The notes beneath the pieces were generated by a model. It had not been told where the DNA came from, did not search any database, and saw nothing but the letters and a program-made list of their open reading frames with translations. Positions 1-18,786 of a stretch of 64,000 nt of DNA are shown here, in pieces (the stretch's first letter is position 1; each line of letters opens with the position of its first letter). The translations under genes were made by a program, and so were the position numbers. Source of the DNA: a virus; IMG/VR virus record IMGVR_UViG_3300042301_002170; one strand, given 5' to 3'.

Positions 1-117
1 ACTTTGAATATGGAGTATTGCTTTGAGATGGGTGCGATTTCTAATGAGAGATATGAACGTGCTAAGGCAGAGATGATGGTGCGTGCTAGAGAGATTTATT
101 TATTCGGACATGAATAG
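1..117 (+). CDS. 3' end of hypothetical protein (partial, runs off window start)
   Basis: Frame-1 open reading TLNMEYCFEMGAISNERYERAKAEMMVRAREIYLFGHE* ending at TAG 115-117, followed by a terminator. Confidence 0.5.
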   Translation, partial: TLNMEYCFEMGAISNERYERAKAEMMVRAREIYLFGHE

Positions 118-204
118 AAATAATTTTACCTAAGTCAGCAATAGACAGTATAGGTATAGAGATATAGATTTGTTTGTTACATTTTTTTTTGGGTTAGAGT
201 ACAG

Positions 205-236
205 AAAGCAGTAGGACGATGTTCTACTGCTTTTTT
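205..236 (+). terminator. Rho-independent terminator
   Basis: Stem aaagcagtag/ctactgcttt (10 bp perfect, extendable), loop gat, followed by T-run. Confidence 0.7.
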
Positions 237-272
237 ATGTCTAATCAACAGAGTTAGTTATCTGGCTAAGTA

Positions 273-285
273 TGACACGGTGTCA
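273..285. promoter_or_regulatory. Palindromic operator-like site TGACA-N3-TGTCA (copy 1)
   Basis: TGACACGGTGTCA, non-coding; same motif at 326-338 and 21224-21236. Confidence 0.5.
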
Positions 286-5952: not shown

Positions 5953-6198
5953 ATGTCAAATTTTGAATTTACTTTTAAAAAACACGCCGAATACTTTACA
6001 GAAAGAATGACCGGTTATATTGAAGAATACAAATGTGTTAGGATGGAGATTATTTCCGCAGAGGGTTGGCATATGGATTTCCCTTTACATTCCGAAGAGG
6101 AGTATAATAACTACCTAAACAACTATTTGAAGGAAGGAGATAGAATCCTTAAAACCTATCCATCTACTACTTTTTACGAATCAAAATATAATTATTAA
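5953..6198 (+). CDS. Hypothetical protein (81 aa)
   Basis: Tiling ORF with AAACTTTAAAC leader. Confidence 0.7.
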   Translation: MSNFEFTFKKHAEYFTERMTGYIEEYKCVRMEIISAEGWHMDFPLHSEEEYNNYLNNYLKEGDRILKTYPSTTFYESKYNY

Positions 6199-6222
6199 AC
6201 TTAAAACTTAAATCATAAAATT

Positions 6223-6678
6223 ATGGGATTAGACATGTATTTAGAAAAACGTACCGATGTTAGACATTGGAGTTTTCAGAAAGAAGAAGAACAATTTGAG
6301 GTTGTTGTTAAAAAGGGTGGTGTAACCTATCCAAAAATCAACCCTAAAAATGTTACAACTATCGTAGAGGAAGTTGGTTACTGGCGTAAAGCAAACCAAA
6401 TCCACCGTTGGTTTGTAGAGAATGTACAAGATAATGTGGATAACTGTGGGGAATACTTTGTTCCAATAGTTAGGTTAAAGGAGTTGTTAGAACTTTGTTT
6501 GGCAGTTAAATTAAACCCTGAACAAGCAGGAACATTATTACCTACCGGTAGTGGTTTCTTCTTTGGTGGTGAAGAATATGATGAGTGGTATTTCAACGAT
6601 ATTGACAACACCATTGAGGTTCTAAAGGAAGCATTATCCGATGATGATGCAAGTTATTATTATTCTTCATCTTGGTAA
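6223..6678 (+). CDS. Conserved phage hypothetical protein (MGLDMY / YWRKANQIH family)
   Basis: MGLDMYL, GYWRKANQIHRWF, GFFFG..EYDEWY motifs. Confidence 0.75.
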   Translation: MGLDMYLEKRTDVRHWSFQKEEEQFEVVVKKGGVTYPKINPKNVTTIVEEVGYWRKANQIHRWFVENVQDNVDNCGEYFVPIVRLKELLELCLAVKLNPEQAGTLLPTGSGFFFGGEEYDEWYFNDIDNTIEVLKEALSDDDASYYYSSSW

Positions 6679-6679
6679 T

Positions 6680-6916
6680 ATGGATTATGTAGATTGTATA
6701 AAATGTGGGTGTGATATGCCCACATTACGATTTGTTATCTATGGATTCAAATCATGTGTAAGTTGTAGTACAACCGAAAGGGTAGGTGGTGTCCCTATTA
6801 CAAACCACAAAACAGGAAATACTATTCAGATTGTTCCTAAATCAGTTGCCGAAAATCTTATCCGTTTATCACAACGACAAGGGTATGGTGTATGTAAGGG
6901 AATGAAACACAATTAA
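6680..6916 (+). CDS. C4 zinc-finger protein, DksA/TraR-like finger (start ATG 6680)
   Basis: CIKCG.DMP.LR....G..SCVSCS spacing resembles the TraR/DksA finger. Confidence 0.5.
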   Translation: MDYVDCIKCGCDMPTLRFVIYGFKSCVSCSTTERVGGVPITNHKTGNTIQIVPKSVAENLIRLSQRQGYGVCKGMKHN

Positions 6917-9539: not shown

Positions 9540-9641
9540 ATGAGTATTATTATGATACCATTTGTTTTAATAAGTGCGATTATAGTATCATTTGCAACAA
9601 TACTTCATTTTGGAATTTGGTGGATTAATAGAAAATTATGA
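9540..9641 (+). CDS. Small hydrophobic peptide (33 aa), not in ORF track
   Basis: MSIIMIPFVLISAIIVSFATILHFGIWWINRKL*; ATGA overlap with the start of 9638. Confidence 0.45.
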   Translation: MSIIMIPFVLISAIIVSFATILHFGIWWINRKL

Positions 9642-11596
9642 GTGATTTGAGTTTTAATTTGGTTTTTGATAATTTTGAAGAAAACGGAAACCCAATTCCT
9701 AATGGGTTAGATATTTCCAAATTAGGGGCAAAAAATAGCGATTGGAATTGGATTACATACGACCCAAAATTAAATCAAAAATTTTATAAAGTAAATGATG
9801 TTACTACAGATGCCAATTTTTTCTATGTAGTTTCCTACAATACTAATCAGTTAAAAGATATATTAGATGATACGTTTATAGTATCAAATGAAGCAATAGA
9901 GTGTTGCAAAAATAAAAATTTAAAAATTTTATTTGTAAACTTTCATGAGGTAAATGATGAAGAATTTTATGTATTAAAACGGATAGTTAAATATATATCG
10001 GATTTAGGATTGGATGAGAATAATTTTTACTATATAAACAATAATAGCAAATTAAACGTATATAAAAAAACACTAAATAGTAAAATTAACACATATACTT
10101 CTGTGTCTCTATTTGAAATGCTAGCAAAAAAATTAAATAGAAACAAACCGGTTTTTAAAGAAGATAAGGAATTTTTATTTTCATGCCATAATAGAGCAAC
10201 AAGAAAACATAGACTTGAAATTTTATGTTTTTTAAAAAAATATAATATATTAGAAAATACCGATTGGTCATTTATAGATACTTATCAAGTTCCACTTCAA
10301 CAAATTCAGTTGGGCGAAATAACTGGATATTTTACATTTGTAGCCGATGAAATTGATTGGCTTAAAACGGTAGGATTAAAATATTCTAAATATGAAGTTG
10401 GTAAATTAGATTTACTTCAATTAGATGGTGGGCATATTACCAATGTAGTTACACCAGAATGTTACATAAATTGTTATATTAATATTATAACCGAAACAAA
10501 TTTTTACATACCAGAAATACACATATCTGAAAAATCATTTCGTCCATTTTATTATATGCAATTGCCAATATTTCTTGCAACGGACAGACATGTTGAAAAT
10601 TTAAGAAAAAAATTTGGATTTGATATGTTTGATGATTTAATAGACCATAGTTACGATTTAGTAAGAAATAACCAAAAACGTATGAAAATGGTTTTTGAAG
10701 AAATAAAACGTTTAAATGATAATAAAGATTTAGTAATTGAATTTTATAAACAAAATAAACATAGATTTGAAAAAAATTTAGAGTTGTTTCAAACAGCATA
10801 TAATAAAGAAGAAACTATAAATTTTTTTAAAAGTTTATCAAATAGAAATATTAACATATTAGATACTATAGATGATATAAATAAAAATATTAAGAAAGCA
10901 AATAATATGAATGATGTAGATTTAAATTTTAAAGGTGATGGTTTTAAAATATATCACGATATAATTGTACCAAACAAATGTGGTACGAGATATTTAAGAG
11001 AATATATTTCATTAAATACGGATGATGATTACAATACTCCAATTGATATAGAACATATTTGGGATTTTCCTAATTTAAATTGGATTGTAATTAGACATCC
11101 TGAAGAATATTTAAAATCTGCTTTAAAAACTGATTTAATAAGTGTTTGGAATAATACTCCTAAGTTAAATGAATTAGATGTAATAAACAGATATTTAAAT
11201 GATGGTACAAACCATTATTTTAATAATCTATATAAAACATTATATTCGTACTCTTTAGATAATAAAAATAAAAAATTTGTTTTTTTAAAAGATTTGAGTG
11301 ATTTTTGTTTATTTAGATTTGCTAATATGAAAAATTATAGTTATGATTCAACTAAATATAATATGGTAGGTAAATATTATATGGACATAGAAACAATAAT
11401 TGATTATGTAAAAGAGTTTTATCCATCTCAATGGGATACTATTCAGTTAAATTTAAAAAAAGAAATGTTTTTTTATAATAAAATAATTGAAAATTGTATT
11501 TTTTTTAATAAAATATCACATCCTCCCATAATTGTTAAAAATCAGGAAACTATTAAAGAAGTTATTGAAAAAAATAGTTGGTTAAAAACTATATAA
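9638..11596 (+). CDS. Glycosyltransferase-like (GT10/GT-B-related) domain fused to sulfotransferase-like domain
   Basis: N-part FSCHNR..HR, INIITET..ISEKSFRP..QLPIF (GT10-like TEK..P motif); C-part PNKCGTRYL / WIVIRHP. Confidence 0.55.
   Translation: MSDLSFNLVFDNFEENGNPIPNGLDISKLGAKNSDWNWITYDPKLNQKFYKVNDVTTDANFFYVVSYNTNQLKDILDDTFIVSNEAIECCKNKNLKILFVNFHEVNDEEFYVLKRIVKYISDLGLDENNFYYINNNSKLNVYKKTLNSKINTYTSVSLFEMLAKKLNRNKPVFKEDKEFLFSCHNRATRKHRLEILCFLKKYNILENTDWSFIDTYQVPLQQIQLGEITGYFTFVADEIDWLKTVGLKYSKYEVGKLDLLQLDGGHITNVVTPECYINCYINIITETNFYIPEIHISEKSFRPFYYMQLPIFLATDRHVENLRKKFGFDMFDDLIDHSYDLVRNNQKRMKMVFEEIKRLNDNKDLVIEFYKQNKHRFEKNLELFQTAYNKEETINFFKSLSNRNINILDTIDDINKNIKKANNMNDVDLNFKGDGFKIYHDIIVPNKCGTRYLREYISLNTDDDYNTPIDIEHIWDFPNLNWIVIRHPEEYLKSALKTDLISVWNNTPKLNELDVINRYLNDGTNHYFNNLYKTLYSYSLDNKNKKFVFLKDLSDFCLFRFANMKNYSYDSTKYNMVGKYYMDIETIIDYVKEFYPSQWDTIQLNLKKEMFFYNKIIENCIFFNKISHPPIIVKNQETIKEVIEKNSWLKTI
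10523..10750 (+). repeat. Direct-repeat blocks, copy 1 (copy 2 at +4082 nt)
   Basis: 51-nt (10523-10573), 35-nt (10619-10653) and 47-nt (10704-10750) stretches identical to 14605-14655, 14701-14735, 14786-14832. Confidence 0.85.
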
Positions 11597-11615
11597 TTTG
11601 ATATTTAAATATGTT

Positions 11616-11918
11616 ATGAATATATCGGTTTTAGACACATTTGAAAGAGGTTATGTTAAGTTGGATTGGAACGAGTATATAAATCGTGTCCAATTAACAT
11701 TAGAACATATGGAAACCATTGTAGATATGATTGATACTTTTAAATTATCAAAATCTGCAAAAGAGTTGGTTGTATTTAGGTTTGAAAACATTCCCGCATA
11801 CATCACTATAAAAAAAGATGAATATCTAAATTTACTAAATTGGATATACGATAAAGCATTAGAACTTGAAATATACGAATTGTGTAAGAAAGTCATGGAT
11901 GTAAAAACTTCTTTATGA
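11616..11918 (+). CDS. Hypothetical protein (100 aa; start ATG 11616)
   Basis: Tiling ORF; C-terminal W..KALELEIYELC motif. Confidence 0.7.
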   Translation: MNISVLDTFERGYVKLDWNEYINRVQLTLEHMETIVDMIDTFKLSKSAKELVVFRFENIPAYITIKKDEYLNLLNWIYDKALELEIYELCKKVMDVKTSL

Positions 11919-12154
11919 ATAAAATAACAGAAATAGCAGTAAGTTGGTGGAGAGCTGAAAATCCTACAAAGGAACAATCTGATTTAGCACAAAAACGATT
12001 GGATATTTGTGTAGGTTGTGATTCACGTAAAGAATCAATTGTGTTCGGATTTGTATGTGGGGAATGTGGTTGCCCAATAGGTAAGAAAATATTTACACCT
12101 AAGTTGGGTACCTGTGATTTAAAAAAATGGAACAACATAGAAGGATTATCTTAA
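11915..12154 (+). CDS. Cys-rich small metal-binding protein (DUF6171-like)
   Basis: RLDICVGC..10..CGECGC..13..CDLKKW; six Cys. Confidence 0.6.
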   Translation: MNKITEIAVSWWRAENPTKEQSDLAQKRLDICVGCDSRKESIVFGFVCGECGCPIGKKIFTPKLGTCDLKKWNNIEGLS

Positions 12155-12192
12155 AATCTTATATTTATGGGTATAAACAAAACTAAATAATT

Positions 12193-13575
12193 ATGAAGAG
12201 TGTTTTAATCGGTGTAGATTATATTAAGAATACGGATGGTATAAAATTATTAGAATTAAATACGGATATTCAAATATCAAATTTAAAAGCTTCTTATTTT
12301 GACCACGATGTGTTAATGCAGTATCTTGCAACAAATAACCTAACAAAAATACACATTATATATAAGGAAATATACACCTCTCCGTTATTTATTGGTACTT
12401 TAAAAGAAAAATGTTTAACAAATAATATTGAGTATTTTGAAACTAAAATTAGTGTTAATAGTATTTTGATTGATGAGATTGCGGATGATACCGAAACTTT
12501 ATTTTTAAGATTAGCATACAATGCACAGGCGATATTAGATGAGTATTATTGCAGAGAAAATGGTGAATTGATTAATTTACTATTTGAAAATGGAAAGGAA
12601 TCTTATATACCTAAAACATATTTACAATATTCTAATGAACTTTTACATGATAATGTTGATTCTATAAATAATAATGGAAATTATCCAAATATAATAGTTA
12701 AAAAAAATTATTCAGATGCTAATAAAACGTTATATCCTGCGTTTTATAATCTTTCAAACGAAACGGAACTAAACAATTTAAAATCAAATTTACCAAACAA
12801 TATATTTTTACAAGAGTACTTATTTTCTTCTGAAAATATTGAATCTGATTTAATTGTAAATCATATTAGAAAATGGTATATTATTGCAAACTCTATGGAA
12901 GATGTAGTTGATTGTGGTGGATATTTACATTCAAACCAAGTTCCGTTAAATAACGATAACATTAATTATACCGATAGTAAATTGGATAATGCAGGTAGAG
13001 CTATGTTTTACTCTAATCCAAATAGATTATCATCTGCGGGTGTTATTTCCCATTATAAAGTTAATAAGTTAGATAGTGAGCAAAACTATCAACCAATCGA
13101 AGTTTCTCAAATTGAATATGGAGATACAATACAGGCATTAAACATTGATACATTAGATGTTGATATGGCTGAATTAAAAATGTTAGAATGGAGATATACT
13201 GGTTCGGTTGAGGATTTAATGACATATACCACCGCATCTGTTGTTAGAAATATTAAATATGATATAGAAGATTGGTTCAATAAAATTGAATATATTAGTG
13301 CAAATCAAACAACTGGTTCATTTTTATTACAAATGAACAAAATGGTATTAACTGAAAAAGATGGTATCGTTAAATTTACAAACGCGCAAGATTTAGAAGT
13401 TGGTATTAATGTTTTTAACACTACTAATAGTGTTTCTGCAATAACGGCGGTAGGTAACGAATATTTTTCTGGTTCAATATATTTACTAGATATAGAACCT
13501 ATTGATGTTTTTATAGCGGGAACTGCTGATAATGAAATTCTTAATTCAACAATAATAATGCATAACTTTAAATAA
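12193..13575 (+). CDS. Circularly permuted ATP-grasp-like ligase fused to C-terminal Hint (intein-like) domain
   Basis: N-terminal GVDY..DG.KLLELNT, IPKTY, IIVK, FLQEY; residues ~283-458 show Hint blocks (IEVSQIEYGDTI, AQDLEVG, IYLLDIEP..VFIAG, IIMHN). Confidence 0.6.
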   Translation: MKSVLIGVDYIKNTDGIKLLELNTDIQISNLKASYFDHDVLMQYLATNNLTKIHIIYKEIYTSPLFIGTLKEKCLTNNIEYFETKISVNSILIDEIADDTETLFLRLAYNAQAILDEYYCRENGELINLLFENGKESYIPKTYLQYSNELLHDNVDSINNNGNYPNIIVKKNYSDANKTLYPAFYNLSNETELNNLKSNLPNNIFLQEYLFSSENIESDLIVNHIRKWYIIANSMEDVVDCGGYLHSNQVPLNNDNINYTDSKLDNAGRAMFYSNPNRLSSAGVISHYKVNKLDSEQNYQPIEVSQIEYGDTIQALNIDTLDVDMAELKMLEWRYTGSVEDLMTYTTASVVRNIKYDIEDWFNKIEYISANQTTGSFLLQMNKMVLTEKDGIVKFTNAQDLEVGINVFNTTNSVSAITAVGNEYFSGSIYLLDIEPIDVFIAGTADNEILNSTIIMHNFK

Positions 13576-13576
13576 T

Positions 13577-13687
13577 ATGGCACAGAATATAATACAAATC
13601 AATAGACCCGTAACTTCTACACAAAACACAACTTGTTTAAATATAATTACTGATATAATTTCTTTAATTAAAGCGAAACACAGTTAA
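13577..13687 (+). CDS. 36-aa peptide, not in ORF track
   Basis: MAQNIIQINRPVTSTQNTTCLNIITDIISLIKAKHS*; fills the gap 1 nt after the upstream stop and 11 nt before the next ATG. Confidence 0.65.
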   Translation: MAQNIIQINRPVTSTQNTTCLNIITDIISLIKAKHS

Positions 13688-13698
13688 TATATTTTTAT

Positions 13699-14988
13699 AT
13701 GAGTGAATCTGTTATAAATTTGGTTTTCGATAATTTCGACCAAGATGGAAATCCTATTCCAAATGGTTCACATATTACAGAATTAAAAGCAACATTATCA
13801 AACGAGTTTTTAAACAAAAACTCATTGAGAAATTTTAATTTTAATATAAAAACAAAATTCTATCACATAAATGATATTACTAACGATGATATATTTTATT
13901 ATATAGTCGGTTACACCACTACTCAGTTAAAAACAATATTAGACGATACATTCATACTATCTAATGAAGCAATAGAATTTTGTAAAAATAAAAATTTAAA
14001 AATTTTATTTGTAAATTTTCATGAAGTAAATTATGAAGAATTTTATTCATTAAAACAAATAGTTAAATATATTTCATATTTAGGATTAGAAGAAGATAAT
14101 TTTTATTATATAAATAATAATAGCAAATTAGAAGAGTATAGAAATATATTAAACAGTAAAATCCATACATATAATTCTATGGTTTTATTTGAATTTATTG
14201 CAAATATATTATGTGAAACTAAAACATTTTTTAAAGAAAATAAAGAATTTTTATTTTTATGCCATAACAGAATTTTTAAAAAACATAGAATTGAAACTTT
14301 ATCTTTTTTAAAAACACACAATATATTAGAAAATACAGATTGGTCAAATTTAAATCAACAGTATAAACATGTAGTCTCCGAAAAATACGCACTTGGCTCG
14401 CGGCGTGGGGAAACTATGGATATACAAGAAGATAAATCAATTTCAAACAAAATAGGATTAAAATATTCTAAATACGAAATTGATAAAACGGATTTACTTC
14501 AATTAGGTCAACCGGAATTTGGCGTTGCGGTTACTCCTGAATGCTATTTAAATTGTTATATTAATATTATAACCGAAACACTTTTTTATTCTACAGAAGT
14601 ACATATATCTGAAAAATCATTTCGTCCATTTTATTATATGCAATTGCCAATATTTGTTGCAACACGCAATCATGTAAAATATTTGAGAAAACAATTTGGT
14701 TTTGATATGTTTGATGATTTAATAGACCATAGTTATGATTTAGAAATAGACCATATAAAACGTATGAAAATGGTATTAGAAGAAGTAAAACGTTTAAATG
14801 ATAATAAAGATTTAGTAATTGAATTTTATAAAAACAATAAAGATAGATTTGAAAAAAATTTAGAGTTGTTTCAAACGGCATGTAATAAAAAAGAAACTTT
14901 AAATTTTTTTAAAAATATTAATACATTAAATAAAATAAATGACACTAATGATTATTTTGATAAAAGCCAAAAGAAATCATTAGTGTAA
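13699..14988 (+). CDS. Glycosyltransferase-like protein (paralog of the 9638 N-domain)
   Basis: FLCHNR..HR, INIITET, ISEKSFRPFYYMQLPIF. Confidence 0.6.
   Translation: MSESVINLVFDNFDQDGNPIPNGSHITELKATLSNEFLNKNSLRNFNFNIKTKFYHINDITNDDIFYYIVGYTTTQLKTILDDTFILSNEAIEFCKNKNLKILFVNFHEVNYEEFYSLKQIVKYISYLGLEEDNFYYINNNSKLEEYRNILNSKIHTYNSMVLFEFIANILCETKTFFKENKEFLFLCHNRIFKKHRIETLSFLKTHNILENTDWSNLNQQYKHVVSEKYALGSRRGETMDIQEDKSISNKIGLKYSKYEIDKTDLLQLGQPEFGVAVTPECYLNCYINIITETLFYSTEVHISEKSFRPFYYMQLPIFVATRNHVKYLRKQFGFDMFDDLIDHSYDLEIDHIKRMKMVLEEVKRLNDNKDLVIEFYKNNKDRFEKNLELFQTACNKKETLNFFKNINTLNKINDTNDYFDKSQKKSLV
14605..14832 (+). repeat. Direct-repeat blocks, copy 2
   Basis: Identical to the blocks in 10523-10750 at a constant offset of 4082. 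Confidence 0.85.
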
Positions 14989-15545
14989 TGTATAATCAAA
15001 AAATAATTTTTAATGAATTAGAATGTAAACAAATTTTATCAGAATTTGTTGGAAATAATCACGTTGCTTACAAAATTCGCTATGATGGTGTTTTTTATGA
15101 AAAAGGATGTAGCGCTACTTCACATGATTTAAAATGGGATTCAAATAATAAATGGATTTTTAATAAAATTAAAAATTGGACAGATGAATTAAATTTGGGT
15201 TTAAAATGGAAAAAACCACCATCTGCAAGTTTTAGAAAATATAAAAAAGGAGATTTTTTTTTAAAACATACGGATGATGTAAAAGGTGATTATGTTAGAA
15301 GTGAAAGAGGTATTAGAATTTTAACAATAGGAATACAGTTAAATGATAAATTAGATTATTTTGGTGGCGATTTTTTTGTGTGGGATAATAGTAATAAAAT
15401 TCATATTGGTAAATCTTTGGGCAATTGTGCATTATATACCACTAATATGCCACACGAGGTTACTGAAATAACGGAAGGTGAAAGAAATTCATTAATATTA
15501 TTTATTACAGATATGCACGCTACTTTTACTAAAAGTATAATATAA
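14988..15545 (+). CDS. 2OG-Fe(II) oxygenase (prolyl-hydroxylase/PKHD-like)
   Basis: HTD..LTIGIQLN..Y.GG.F...HEVTEITEGERNSL: HxD...H iron triad plus 2OG-binding Arg. Confidence 0.85.
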   Translation: MYNQKIIFNELECKQILSEFVGNNHVAYKIRYDGVFYEKGCSATSHDLKWDSNNKWIFNKIKNWTDELNLGLKWKKPPSASFRKYKKGDFFLKHTDDVKGDYVRSERGIRILTIGIQLNDKLDYFGGDFFVWDNSNKIHIGKSLGNCALYTTNMPHEVTEITEGERNSLILFITDMHATFTKSII

Positions 15546-15546
15546 T

Positions 15547-16221
15547 ATGAATAAACTTTGGACATTTGGGGATAGCTTCACTGCAGGTCATGGTTGTACT
15601 TCAGAATTTGAGTATTATAAAAAATATTATAAAGAAGGTGATAAACTTTGGGCTGAGTTACTTTCTGATGAATTAAATTTAGAATTATCAAATATTGGTA
15701 AAAGTGGTGCAAGTAATGATTATATTATAGATTCTATAATTTTAAATTGGAACAAAATAAAACAAAATGATTTTGTTGTAATAGGGAAAACATTTAGTTA
15801 TAGATTTGATGTGCCAATAAAATCAGAAAAATCTATTATCGATACAATATCTAATAGTTGGCAATCACTTGGTATTTCTGAAAGAGAATTTAGAACAATT
15901 GGGTCACCTAATTATGTGGTTTTGGATAATGTAAATGAAGAATTTGAAACAATTATAAATTTTAATTATCATTTTGCGGCAAATCCATTGTATAAAGAAC
16001 GACAAGATTTAAGATATGACTTCTTAGTAAATGAGTTGGAGCAAAAACAAATTAAAGTTTATTTATGGGATATTGAGTCCTCACACAGAAAACTAAAGTT
16101 TAACACCATAAAAATGGATACTAAAAATGAAATAGATGACGGTCATTTTTCTTTTAAAGGACACATTGAATTTTATAGATGGATTTCTAAAAAAATAAAA
16201 AATGAAAATAAAATAATTTAA
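15547..16221 (+). CDS. SGNH/GDSL-fold hydrolase or acyltransferase
   Basis: FGDSFTAG block I, GKSGASND block II, DGH block V. Confidence 0.7.
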   Translation: MNKLWTFGDSFTAGHGCTSEFEYYKKYYKEGDKLWAELLSDELNLELSNIGKSGASNDYIIDSIILNWNKIKQNDFVVIGKTFSYRFDVPIKSEKSIIDTISNSWQSLGISEREFRTIGSPNYVVLDNVNEEFETIINFNYHFAANPLYKERQDLRYDFLVNELEQKQIKVYLWDIESSHRKLKFNTIKMDTKNEIDDGHFSFKGHIEFYRWISKKIKNENKII

Positions 16222-16281
16222 ATATGTTATGAAAATAATAAAAATAAATACACGAACCTAAAAGTAAAATCAATTATTTAA
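16222..16281 (+). pseudogene. Start-less relic 3' end of a tagged gene (ICYENNKNKYTNLKVKSII*)
   Basis: The 60-nt spacer is fully open in the upstream gene's frame and ends in the cluster tag KSII* just before ATG 16282. Confidence 0.4.
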
Positions 16282-16980
16282 ATGGAAATACATCATTTTG
16301 GGGACAGTTATTGTTTTACTAATATGGGACCTGTGTTTTGTCAAATTATGGCAAAAAATATTGAATACCAATATAATCTGTATGGACGAAGTGGATACTC
16401 TAATGAACAAATAATTAATAGTGTTATAAAAAATTTAGATAAATTTAAAAGTGGAGATAAAATATTTATAAATTTTTCATTTTTTACAAGAGGGTGTTGG
16501 TATGATGATAAATCTAAATCAATACAATCGTTAAATACGTTTTATAATGATTTAAAAAAAACAAAAAAGGATTTAGGACAAATACAAATTGAAAAAATAA
16601 TGCCATTAGTTGATTATTATTTGGTAAATACTGAAGACAACGCAAGAAAATTATTCACTATAATGGATTCCATTTTTGAATATATTGAAAAATTAGGTGT
16701 AAAAGTATTTTACATATTTGTAGATGAGTATGATTGGTCAGATGAATTATTAAACAATGGAATTAATATTAAATTTAAAAATGGGTTTGGATTTTGGTTA
16801 AAAAAGAATAATTTTCATTTAGGTACGGATGGACACTATACAAAAGGAATACAAGATATGTTAGCAGATATTATACTTAAAAAAACAAATAATTTAGAAG
16901 AAACAATTAATAAAAAGATTAATATAGATATGGTAGATGTTAATTTAGAATTAATAACAAAACCATCAAAAATAATTTAA
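16282..16980 (+). CDS. SGNH-fold protein
   Basis: FGDSY, GRSGYSN, DGH motifs. Confidence 0.65.
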   Translation: MEIHHFGDSYCFTNMGPVFCQIMAKNIEYQYNLYGRSGYSNEQIINSVIKNLDKFKSGDKIFINFSFFTRGCWYDDKSKSIQSLNTFYNDLKKTKKDLGQIQIEKIMPLVDYYLVNTEDNARKLFTIMDSIFEYIEKLGVKVFYIFVDEYDWSDELLNNGINIKFKNGFGFWLKKNNFHLGTDGHYTKGIQDMLADIILKKTNNLEETINKKINIDMVDVNLELITKPSKII

Positions 16981-17547
16981 ATGGTAATTACAATTTTAGC
17001 AGAACCCAGAAGTGGTTCAACCAATTTAACAAATTGGTTTTATTATAATAAAAATTTTACCACATTATTTGAACCATTAAATCCTATGTCAAAGTGGTTT
17101 CAAAAAGATATACCCCCAATCAATTATCTGTACGATACTGAACATTTATGTATCAAAGAAGTATATTATCCACATAAGGATTGGGAGGATATTATAGAAG
17201 TATCTAATAAAATAATTATATTATATAGAAACGATTACACAAAACAATTAGAATCATTTTTAAATGCGGTAAGAACCTCCAATTGGGGCGGTGAATATAT
17301 ATACAAACATATTGATACAACATTTATTAAAGAAAATACTGATTATTTTAATGAATTAAAAACTAAATTTAAAGAAAAATACATAGATATGGATTTTTTT
17401 AAAATATCATATGAAGAATTATATAATGAAAACGGATTTCAAAAAATAGTTGATTATATCAATTTAGACTGTGTTGAAAATAAAAATTTTCCATATGGTC
17501 AAAAATACCGCATAGAATTTAATGAAAAATCCAAAACTTTAATTTAA
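16981..17547 (+). CDS. Sulfotransferase-like protein (Stf0-like P-loop)
   Basis: AEPRSGST 5'-PSB loop, FEP, ILYR..QLES, ISYEEL. Confidence 0.65.
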   Translation: MVITILAEPRSGSTNLTNWFYYNKNFTTLFEPLNPMSKWFQKDIPPINYLYDTEHLCIKEVYYPHKDWEDIIEVSNKIIILYRNDYTKQLESFLNAVRTSNWGGEYIYKHIDTTFIKENTDYFNELKTKFKEKYIDMDFFKISYEELYNENGFQKIVDYINLDCVENKNFPYGQKYRIEFNEKSKTLI

Positions 17548-18786
17548 ATGGAAATACAATTCTGGTACTGTGATTTTTATTCTAATTATACAAATATTAA
17601 AGAAACAATTCAAAAAATAGATAATACTATTTTATTTAAAAATATTTCTACTGATAAGATAGACCCCACAAAATTAAATTTTTTAGTTTTTTTATTAGAA
17701 ACTGAATGGGAAAATTCAGATGCCGATAAAATTAAAGGATTTTCAAAAAATATAAAAACATCAAATACCAATTCTAATGAATTTATAAATTTATTAATTG
17801 AATTACAACATAAAAATTTTTATTTTTTAATGGATAATACCGGAGAGGCTGTGCTTTGGTTGGACGAAAAATATTTAAATTTTATTAATAAATTAAACAG
17901 AAATAAAATTGATTCTAATAGATTAATTATTGCAAATAATGATTCATCTGATATTGGTATAAATAAAAGAAATAAGTATAATCCAATCCATAACTTAGCA
18001 AAATATGGTAGTTTTATATTAAATACGTGTTTTTTTCCTAAATTTTTTTTATCAACCTATAATCATATGAGTGGTTATATTGAAGATATTACTATTAAAA
18101 CGGTAATCAAACCAGATAAAACATTTTTATGTTTGAATAGAAGAATGAATTTTAAAAAATATCAAATTATTGAAGAATTATTTAATAAAGGGTTATTAAG
18201 AGATACTCGATTTACTTGGGTACACAACGCGGTACCCACTAATCGAATAAATAAAAAATTATTATCAGAACTAAATATAAATGTAGATAACTTTAAATCA
18301 ATTCAATTGGAAGATGATGTAATGTATGGTAGTCAATTATCATATTTAGATGAGTTTTTATACACCATAAACCCAAACTGGTATTATAAAAGTAAAGTTA
18401 ATATCATAACAGAAACTATGTTATATAAAAATTCAATACACCTTACAGAAAAAACATGGAAAGCAATCTATTTAGGTGTTCCATTTGTTATATATGCACC
18501 ATCAAAACATTACCTTAAAACATTAAGGGATATGGGATTTAAAACATTTAATTCGGTTATTAATGAGGACTATGATGAAATGGATGGTGATGGTAAAATA
18601 AAAAAAATTATAGATAGTGCATTAGAATTATCAAATATTTATGATAGTAAAGAAGTATTAGAAATATGTAAATTTAATCAGGAATTATATTTTAATTTAG
18701 AGTATCGTAAAAAAATATATAAAGAAACTTTTTTAGACAAACTATATGATATTAAAACCACATTTGTTTCTAAAACTTTAATTTAA
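17548..18786 (+). CDS. Glycosyltransferase-like protein (third GT10/GT-B-related paralog)
   Basis: FLCLNRR, VNIITET, LTEKTWKAI..GVPFV, LRDMGFKTF..VINEDYD. Confidence 0.6.
   Translation: MEIQFWYCDFYSNYTNIKETIQKIDNTILFKNISTDKIDPTKLNFLVFLLETEWENSDADKIKGFSKNIKTSNTNSNEFINLLIELQHKNFYFLMDNTGEAVLWLDEKYLNFINKLNRNKIDSNRLIIANNDSSDIGINKRNKYNPIHNLAKYGSFILNTCFFPKFFLSTYNHMSGYIEDITIKTVIKPDKTFLCLNRRMNFKKYQIIEELFNKGLLRDTRFTWVHNAVPTNRINKKLLSELNINVDNFKSIQLEDDVMYGSQLSYLDEFLYTINPNWYYKSKVNIITETMLYKNSIHLTEKTWKAIYLGVPFVIYAPSKHYLKTLRDMGFKTFNSVINEDYDEMDGDGKIKKIIDSALELSNIYDSKEVLEICKFNQELYFNLEYRKKIYKETFLDKLYDIKTTFVSKTLI

Follow-up and report, generated by a model that had tools for sequence, protein, structure and literature searches.

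Our analysis suggests that one gene in a 64,000-nucleotide (nt) stretch of viral DNA, IMG/VR record IMGVR_UViG_3300042301_002170 (called the window here, at its full length), encodes a peptide ligase that carries its own substrate as a fusion, acts once, and processes itself, which would make it a phage peptide-maturation module. We put the probability of this reading at about 0.5. The 460-amino-acid (aa) product joins a permuted ATP-grasp domain that begins at its hairpin, a Hint domain that appears to keep only the Asn-cleavage half, and a C-terminal tail that diversifies among relatives; a micro-peptide gene follows. The parts are known folds, and their combination appears new, not being described in the sources searched. 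No description of an ATP-grasp/Hint fusion was found in the literature searched, a mention in the amidoligase survey by Iyer et al. (2009) being possible. The features that carry the argument are listed below; conservation counts refer to 174 complete relatives, with identity to the query down to 20%.

12193..13575, plus strand: ATP-grasp–Hint fusion protein P0001, 460 aa (open reading frame (ORF) and translation)
12193..13038, plus strand: circularly permuted ATP-grasp ligase domain, residues 1–282 (domain model and fold searches)
12217..12261, plus strand: beta-hairpin D9 ... E21-x-N23, presumed Mg/ATP-binding triad (each residue 174/174)
12700..12702, plus strand: Lys170, by analogy the presumed ATP-binding Lys, in the P-N-x-I-V-K-K strand (173/174)
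12868..12870, plus strand: Arg226, near-invariant Arg of the ligase domain (173/174)
13039..13566, plus strand: degenerate Hint domain, residues 283–458 (Z 16–17; hhalign 98.8%)
13561..13566, plus strand: His457-Asn458, presumed Asn-cyclisation (C-terminal cleavage) site (Asn458 174/174)
13567..13575, plus strand: tail Phe459-Lys460 and stop codon, minimal form of a variable Lys-bearing tail
13577..13687, plus strand: 36-aa partner peptide gene, product ending ...L-I-K-A-K-H-S, ATG 1 nt after the fusion-gene stop

The protein begins M-K-S-V-L-I-G7-V-D9 ... L20-E21-L-N23-T24 and ends His457-Asn458-Phe459-Lys460, and the codon of Gly283 starts at nt 13039. Its sole Pfam match, to the RimK ATP-grasp model, is below threshold (E 0.038; 14 bits, cut-off 21), and a PHROGs search returned no family. 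Therefore, sequence libraries were unable to settle the fold claims of the initial annotation, which had proposed a permuted ATP-grasp ligase joined to a non-splicing Hint domain and had named structure prediction as a check. AlphaFold2, run on a 41-sequence alignment, gave a confident two-domain model (pLDDT 88, pTM 0.82) that confirmed both folds, and on this model we assign the two domains with high confidence. A search of a viral structure library returned Hint matches only, with no counterpart of the two-domain protein.

Folded alone, the ligase domain reached a pLDDT of 92.5. Its model was compared with 48,161 PDB representatives using VIA-align, and Foldseek was also used. The best matches were GSS22 (5oeu, Z 8.9), YgiC (7uka, Z 8.8), and Gsp synthetase (GspS; 2io7, Z 8.5), in alignments spanning 205–213 residues. 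They were followed by further members of the same clade: 3n6x (Z 8.3), the glutathione synthetases (GS) of trypanosome, soybean, and yeast, Cp1B, and trypanothione synthetase. Foldseek likewise matched the N-terminal domain to human and yeast GS, YgiC, and YjfC (E 1e-5 to 2hgs). The permuted clade, at Z 7–9, aligned with model residues 1 to 251–279, starting from residue 1 throughout. In contrast, the classical ATP-grasps (RimK, ArgX/LysX, E. coli GshB, DcsG, TTLLs, and the graspetide ligase 7mgv) reached only Z 5–6 and began to align near model residue 50, which fell on approximately the first residue of each, so that the N-terminal hairpin had no partner (RimK, model 49..278 to -1..217; GshB, model 50..278 to 1..239). 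The domain therefore has the circular permutation common to the GS/GspS clade. The weak RimK match supports this strand order, as it places residues 1–31 on profile positions 142–172 of 188, i.e., at the end of the Pfam model. In classical ATP-grasps, the Mg/ATP hairpin lies near the C-terminus.

The Z values are moderate; however, the matches form one coherent clade, the whole domain is covered, and the expected catalytic residues are invariant, so the assignment of residues 1–282 to a permuted ATP-grasp ligase of the GS/GspS/YgiC clade, made initially from sequence motifs, is confirmed at the level of the predicted structure. None of the curated sequence models (GSP_synth, GSH_synth_ATP, CP_ATPgrasp, or the like) matched significantly, and the domain would thus be a new sequence family within the ATP-grasp fold. 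D9, E21, and N23, which we take to be the metal-binding residues by analogy with known ATP-grasps, are joined by R106 and D116 (174/174 each), K170, and R226. Because these seven residues are invariant or nearly so, the ligase is almost certainly active; their conservation, like that of Asn458, goes well beyond what chance would give.

The GS/GspS/YgiC clade, with the fungal Cp1B of E-64 biosynthesis, shares with the phage domain the fold, the permuted order, and a D..E-x-N hairpin that precedes the Rossmann-like subdomain. Its members carry approximately 95–145 residues before the hairpin (approximately 310 in bifunctional GspS), whereas the phage domain begins exactly at the hairpin. Unlike these enzymes, it is fused to a Hint domain, and it lacks a sequence-level match to the clade. 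YgiC and YjfC ligate peptides to spermidine, whereas the substrates that Cp1B condenses are a carboxylate and an amino acid (PMC12568646). That paper and the work it cites (Pederick 2023) describe the activation of a carboxylate as an acyl phosphate and its transfer to an amine, often a primary amine of a polyamine; the carboxylates named there are the C-terminal Gly of glutathione, peptide C-termini (YgiC/YjfC), and epoxysuccinate (Cp1B).

The C-terminal domain matched Hint folds more strongly. The C. thermocellum bacterial intein-like (BIL) domain, Hedgehog, Tetrahymena BUBL BIL2, and many mini-inteins aligned at Z 15–17, with a root-mean-square deviation of approximately 1.9–2.0 A across approximately 136 residues. 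In many PDB entries, model residues 283 and 458 coincided with intein residue 1 and the terminal Asn, respectively, in agreement with the boundaries given in the initial annotation (Gly283 to His-Asn458). Profile comparison using hhalign with the canonical Hint domains of longer family members gave a probability of 98.8% (E 1.2e-16). It placed Gly283 on Cys1, the block-B Thr/His on non-conserved Met residues, and the block-F (F:13) His on Asp438. Residues 283–460 of the query contain no Cys. Among the relatives, position 283 is Gly in 125 and Ser or Thr in 14, with Cys in no common variant. Asn458 is invariant, and His457 is present in 159 and replaced by Tyr in 13. The +1 residue, Phe in the query, is Tyr or Phe in 101 of 210 proteins and Cys in six.

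We compared these residues with the intein and BIL mechanisms reviewed in PMC4031507. The core Hint has neither the Cys/Ser/Thr at position 1 nor the block-B Thr-x-x-His of class 1 inteins, and it also lacks the +1 Cys/Ser/Thr of classes 1–3 and the block F:4 Cys of class 3. It does have the terminal His-Asn without a +1 nucleophile that marks type A BILs; the Cys1 that would form their N-terminal thioester is found only in the extra Hint domains described below. Given Gly1, Phe at +1, and the absence of both a block-B Thr/His and any Cys, class 1–3 splicing and the BIL thioester are excluded, and the core Hint should be unable to splice, as the initial annotation had anticipated. Asn cyclisation is the sole Hint reaction that would remain to it, and cleavage after Asn458 by this route probably takes place. 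The top structural matches include type A BILs (C. thermocellum 2lwy, Z 16.9; Tetrahymena BUBL BIL2 6y75, Z 15.9), which resemble the core Hint in fold, terminal His-Asn, and missing +1 nucleophile. However, BILs all use an N-terminal thioester, which a domain with Gly1 and no block-B Thr/His cannot form. In type A BILs, Asn cyclisation releases the C-terminal fragment, whose newly exposed alpha-amine is able to enter a peptide bond (PMC4031507).

Two other readings of the Hint sequence were rejected. Y345-T-T-A-S was considered as an intein block B, but hhalign puts block B approximately 35 residues further on, at Met residues that are not conserved; splicing of the class 2 or 3 type was dismissed for want of a +1 Cys and of any Cys in the domain. 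The three (S/T)GS motifs reported earlier do occur, with moderate conservation, at residues 336, 374, and 426. The proposed tie to virion proteins is unsupported: their density of 0.65 per 100 aa is a weak enrichment over the window mean of 0.24 and is below the 1.4–2.2 of fibre-like proteins.

The protein belongs to a large family. A word-indexed search found 110 close relatives, all metagenomic, on contigs of up to 273 kb. A profile search of 1.84 billion cluster representatives gave 381 matches (clusters at 50% identity), 163 of them below E 1e-30, and nearly all of the 381 align from their own residue 1. A tblastn search of 50,697 cultured-phage records, which is of limited reach, found no relative. 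None was found in 185,579 cellular species genomes either, where only two close-subfamily peptide patterns were scanned, so that cellular absence is weakly shown.

The initial annotation had asked whether homologues carry longer tails after His-Asn (HN), and our survey of 210 proteins with a complete core found Cys-rich peptides, additional canonical Hint domains, and S74 domains at this position. None of the 210 terminates at the core Asn. In 112 proteins, the tail is a stub of 1–9 residues (YK in 33, FK in 17, and others), and every one of these contains Lys, against 18 expected by composition. Fifty-three proteins have tails of 10–100 residues, with 16.5% Cys compared with 0.55% in the core. 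All 53 contain Lys, and all have an even number of Cys residues (4, 6, 8, 10, or 12), a mark of fully paired disulfides. In many relatives, the tail is a disulfide-rich mini-protein of 20–85 aa. The position of the Lys differs between two groups: in group A, it lies among the last 1–4 residues, and in group B, the tail ends in Cys with or without 1–2 further residues and the conserved Lys is internal, in a C-P-K motif. We considered whether the terminal Lys codon is a by-product of the A-rich start of the downstream gene and rejected this, as Lys is kept at gaps of 5–38 nt and is internal in group B.

Two further tail classes carry additional domains. In one, the core is followed by one to three canonical Hint domains that begin Cys-(Phe/Val)-x-x-Gly-Thr and usually end ...His-Asn-Lys(x0-3), sometimes with a Cys-rich peptide between the core HN and Cys1. 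These extra Hints, called PT-HINT by Pfam, fit a type-A-BIL-like pattern (Cys1 ... HN-K). In the other class, a Cys-rich peptide is joined to a Peptidase_S74 domain with the consensus ...K-S-D-x-R-L-K-E-N-I... (8 of 10 match PF13884, best E 1.2e-6). Peptidase_S74 serves phage tail spikes as an intramolecular chaperone that cleaves itself. Where a Cys-rich segment lies between two self-cleaving modules, it is difficult to see it as other than an excised product.

Two subgroups of the extra-Hint class stand out. In P0102–P0108, P0112, and P0114 (616–617 aa), the extra Hint has Cys1 and ends ...V-L-V-Y-D-E-(E/Q)-K, not His-Asn; it looks like an N-cleavage-only domain of the Hedgehog or type-B-BIL kind, placed after a core Hint that would cleave only at its C-terminus. 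In P0210 and P0229 (904–906 aa), the core protein is followed by three tandem canonical Hints, and such tandem arrays at one site are unusual.

The tails also bear on whether the core Hint cleaves at all. Having lost three usual catalytic positions (Cys1, block-B His, and block-F His) and, in 13 relatives, the penultimate His, the domain could have lost all catalytic function and persist only for scaffolding or substrate binding. The tail would then stay uncleaved, and the ligase, whose residues are better conserved than the rest of the protein, would, like YgiC/YjfC or Cp1B, produce a small-molecule or peptide-amine conjugate, perhaps with the small peptide as its substrate. We consider this quite unlikely: Asn458 is retained in 174/174 proteins at identities down to 20%, always before a variable tail and never as the last residue, and hypervariable tails bracketed by other self-cleaving domains make sense only if they are released. 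A different use of cleavage would be a timer or zymogen, in which the Lys-bearing tail blocks the ligase site until slow Asn cyclisation frees it, so that action on host targets or the small peptide would begin only at a set time in infection. The universal tail Lys could mimic an amine substrate, and inteins and BILs are slow single-turnover devices (PMC4031507). This arrangement would leave the even-count tails of 4–12 Cys and the second self-cleaving domains unexplained, and we find it very unlikely.

A link between the fusion protein and the 36-aa peptide, implied in the initial annotation, is supported by synteny: a homologous ORF of 24–46 aa lies 3' of the fusion gene in 34/34 non-redundant loci with downstream DNA (a strict search for the end motif accounts for 31; L001, L007, and L012, with variant endings, were seen directly). 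In 31 of the 34, the gap between the two genes is 1–38 nt, and in the other three, a 69-aa membrane ORF lies between them. This hydrophobic, membrane-like ORF occurs in the extra-Hint subgroup (L002, 9856–10065; L009, 5860–6069), and L010 has the same spacing of 232 nt. Genes this short tend to be skipped by gene callers. Aligned at their C-termini, the peptides share a hydrophobic stretch, probably helical, an invariant Ile 5–6 residues from the end, and the terminal pattern (K/R/V)-x-x-(H/N)-(S/T), with most ending in (H/N)(S/T). The group-B peptide is a near-invariant 29-mer, M-A-x-I-I-T-N-T-E-I-N-T-L-N-T-T...L-I-V-x-A-N-S. A split-intein C-fragment was considered and rejected, as the peptide is hydrophobic and probably helical, and most copies have no terminal Asn.

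A Hint domain that precedes variable C-terminal cassettes, together with a small gene directly 3', recalls polymorphic toxins, in which the Hint would release the tail as a toxin and the downstream ORF would encode its immunity protein; the Pfam name of the extra Hints, PT-HINT, points the same way. However, changes of cassette are not accompanied by changes in the small gene. The two peptide types, …IKAKHS and …IVTANS, follow the phylogeny of the large protein and not the tail class, which argues against an immunity protein. A near-identical ...ILQILFAAIKAKHS peptide follows both extra-Hint tails (L002, L010, L014) and an S74 tail (L013), and a related one follows the two-residue FK tail. In addition, the phage protein, although it shares with PT-HINT toxins a Hint before variable cassettes, has no secretion or trafficking domain, its N-terminal part is an enzyme with intact catalytic residues, and the family is phage-borne, with no cellular copy found in the pattern-limited search. 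A toxin–immunity pair is thus highly improbable.

The ligase could instead act on the tail alone. Once Asn cyclisation had freed the alpha-amine of the tail, the ATP-grasp domain would activate the C-terminal carboxylate of the tail itself and close the tail head-to-tail, giving a cyclic disulfide-rich peptide or, in the query, a Phe-Lys diketopiperazine, or an amino acid or amine would be added to the tail carboxylate; the small peptide would serve as a chaperone, scaffold, or regulator. GS/GspS/YgiC-type enzymes do use C-terminal carboxylates, the Lys within the last 1–4 residues of group-A tails makes their C-terminal end look recognised, and the HN–peptide–Cys1-Hint layout of some members would permit intein-type cyclisation. 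Split-intein circular ligation of peptides and proteins (SICLOPPS) has a comparable layout. But this proposal leaves the strictly conserved C-terminus of the small peptide (34/34 loci) without a reason, group-B tails end in Cys with or without 1–2 residues and keep their Lys internal, and nothing is left to cyclise where Cys1 of the extra Hint directly adjoins HN. We regard action on the tail alone as unlikely.

The chemistry of the clade, one conserved free carboxylate at the end of the small peptide, and two candidate amines on the tail together lead us to propose the enzyme–substrate fusion. The tail would be a covalently tethered substrate and the downstream 24–46-aa peptide its co-substrate. 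As in the GS/GspS/YgiC clade, the ligase would convert a carboxylate, here the C-terminus of the peptide, into an acyl phosphate and couple it with an amine, either the epsilon-amine of the invariably present tail Lys, whose chemistry resembles that of the polyamine amine accepted by GspS/YgiC, or the alpha-amine that cleavage would expose. In the core Hint, Asn458 would cyclise, cutting the bond after it and freeing the tail with a new alpha-amine, so that the Hint would act as a built-in release protease for the product. Neighbouring dioxygenases, halogenase, esterases, and sulfotransferase-like enzymes may then tailor it. Peptide-to-tail ligation in exactly this form is our tentative choice, held at somewhat under even odds. 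With greater reserve, we suggest that the module could be an ATP-driven stand-in for protein trans-splicing, in which acyl-phosphate chemistry would stitch the C-terminus of the helical peptide to the freed disulfide-rich tail or Lys stub, giving a new phage-specific class of two-chain or branched ribosomal peptide products, to be tailored by oxygenases, halogenases, and transferases encoded nearby; that the chemistry is new in kind is likewise doubtful.

Several points weigh against the enzyme–substrate fusion. We infer both the cleavage and the ligation. No Pfam ATP-grasp model exceeds its threshold for the 460-aa protein, and a profile search of PDB sequences gave chance matches only. The block-F His, the usual helper of Asn cyclisation, is Asp438, and the penultimate His is Tyr in 13/174, so that cleavage may be slow or may fail altogether. 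When Phe-Lys is the whole tail, ligation would yield no more than the peptide extended or branched by these two residues, which is odd for a 460-aa single-turnover protein. Finally, where canonical Hints directly adjoin the core HN and the protein ends ...HN-K, BIL-type splicing may simply regenerate the tail, which would then be uninformative about the ligase. Each of the rival explanations accounts for fewer of the conserved features than the enzyme–substrate fusion does.

Two known systems offer partial parallels. In borosins (OphMA-like), a methyltransferase carries its own core peptide at its C-terminus and a separate protease is needed. Such precursors of peptides made on the ribosome and modified after translation are likewise enzymes fused to their substrate tail that act once and then release it; there is no homology, and the phage protein differs in having an ATP-grasp ligase in place of the methyltransferase and in that release would come from a built-in Hint. 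Graspetide (microviridin-type) ligases also belong to the ATP-grasp enzymes and form amide or ester bonds, with Lys taking part, on peptides of ribosomal origin. In contrast to the permuted phage domain, they have the classical RimK-like topology and act in trans on leader-bearing precursors; the graspetide ligase 7mgv aligns only from model residue 50 (Z 5.4), which places the phage domain outside the graspetide ligases. A phylogenomic survey of graspetides mentions no Hint fusion (PMC8939145).

The window has a low G+C content (22–35%), with essentially all genes on the plus strand. It encodes a T4-type baseplate wedge, a Nol-like carbamoyltransferase, UvdE, peptide deformylase, and a 2-oxoglutarate (2OG)-Fe(II) oxygenase, and its baseplate protein is 40% identical to the counterparts of Microcystis phage Mel-JY01 and Flavobacterium phage immuto. 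On this gene content, we therefore assign the window to a large uncultured T4-like myophage. Two neighbours of the fusion gene recur at other loci:

11915..12154, plus strand: small Cys-rich CxxCGCP protein, 79 aa (phrog_13558, E 3.5e-7)
14988..15545, plus strand: 2OG-Fe(II) oxygenase, recurrent neighbour (PF13640, E 2.5e-9)

The CxxCGCP protein (79–99 aa; C-x-x-C-G-C-P..K(I/V)(F/Y)) is within the fetched flanks at 34 of 49 loci and is a frequent third member of the neighbourhood. The oxygenase is a looser associate: similar oxygenases or an Asp/Asn beta-hydroxylase lie 3' of the peptide gene in L007, L020, L029, and L033, and peptide-type dioxygenases (2OG-FeII_Oxy_3) and GDSL-like esterases recur near family loci. 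In L033, the Asp/Asn beta-hydroxylase (6124–6717; PF05118, E 4e-12) lies approximately 0.5 kb 3' of the small peptide gene, with a 176-aa ORF between them. Enzymes of this type hydroxylate disulfide-rich epidermal growth factor-like domains and would suit the Cys-rich tails of the family. In L002 (5735–7994) and L003, three genes are inserted between the CxxCGCP and ligase–Hint genes, namely a Trp halogenase (408 aa), a 154-aa ORF, and a zeta-toxin/AAA_33-like kinase; the post-HN linker of the 616-aa homologue in L002 is rich in Trp and Cys (K-C-I-Y-S-W-W-C-C).

The ligase–peptide pair of the window is flanked by paralogues, the ORFs at 9638–11596 (652 aa) and 13699–14988 (429 aa), which are alike over their first ~420 residues and both begin M-S-(D/E)-(L/S)-...-N-L-V-F-D-N-F; Pfam returned nothing significant for either. 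In 11596–18786, the ends of the ORFs at 9638, 13699, 14988, 15547, 16282, 16981, and 17548, consecutive enzymes of differing folds, have look-alike C-termini (…LKTI, …KSLV, …KSII, …NKII, …SKII, …KTLI, and …KTLI, respectively). These could be a shared tag or a by-product of A/T-rich stop/start junctions.

Even if the mechanism proves wrong in detail, our analysis identifies a well-defined, conserved three-part system without annotation, comprising 381 clusters, catalytic residues that do not vary, and an obligatory micro-peptide gene. If the mechanism is true, it would add a fourth natural use of the Hint domain to splicing, cholesterol transfer, and toxin release, namely built-in release for an enzyme that carries its substrate. 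An Asn-cyclisation-only Hint without thiol chemistry would serve protein engineering as a tag-free self-cleaving module, and the ligase may become a tool for C-terminal peptide ligation. For the phages themselves, it would mean that large environmental phages encode a widespread and diversifying family of disulfide-rich modified peptides that has so far been overlooked.

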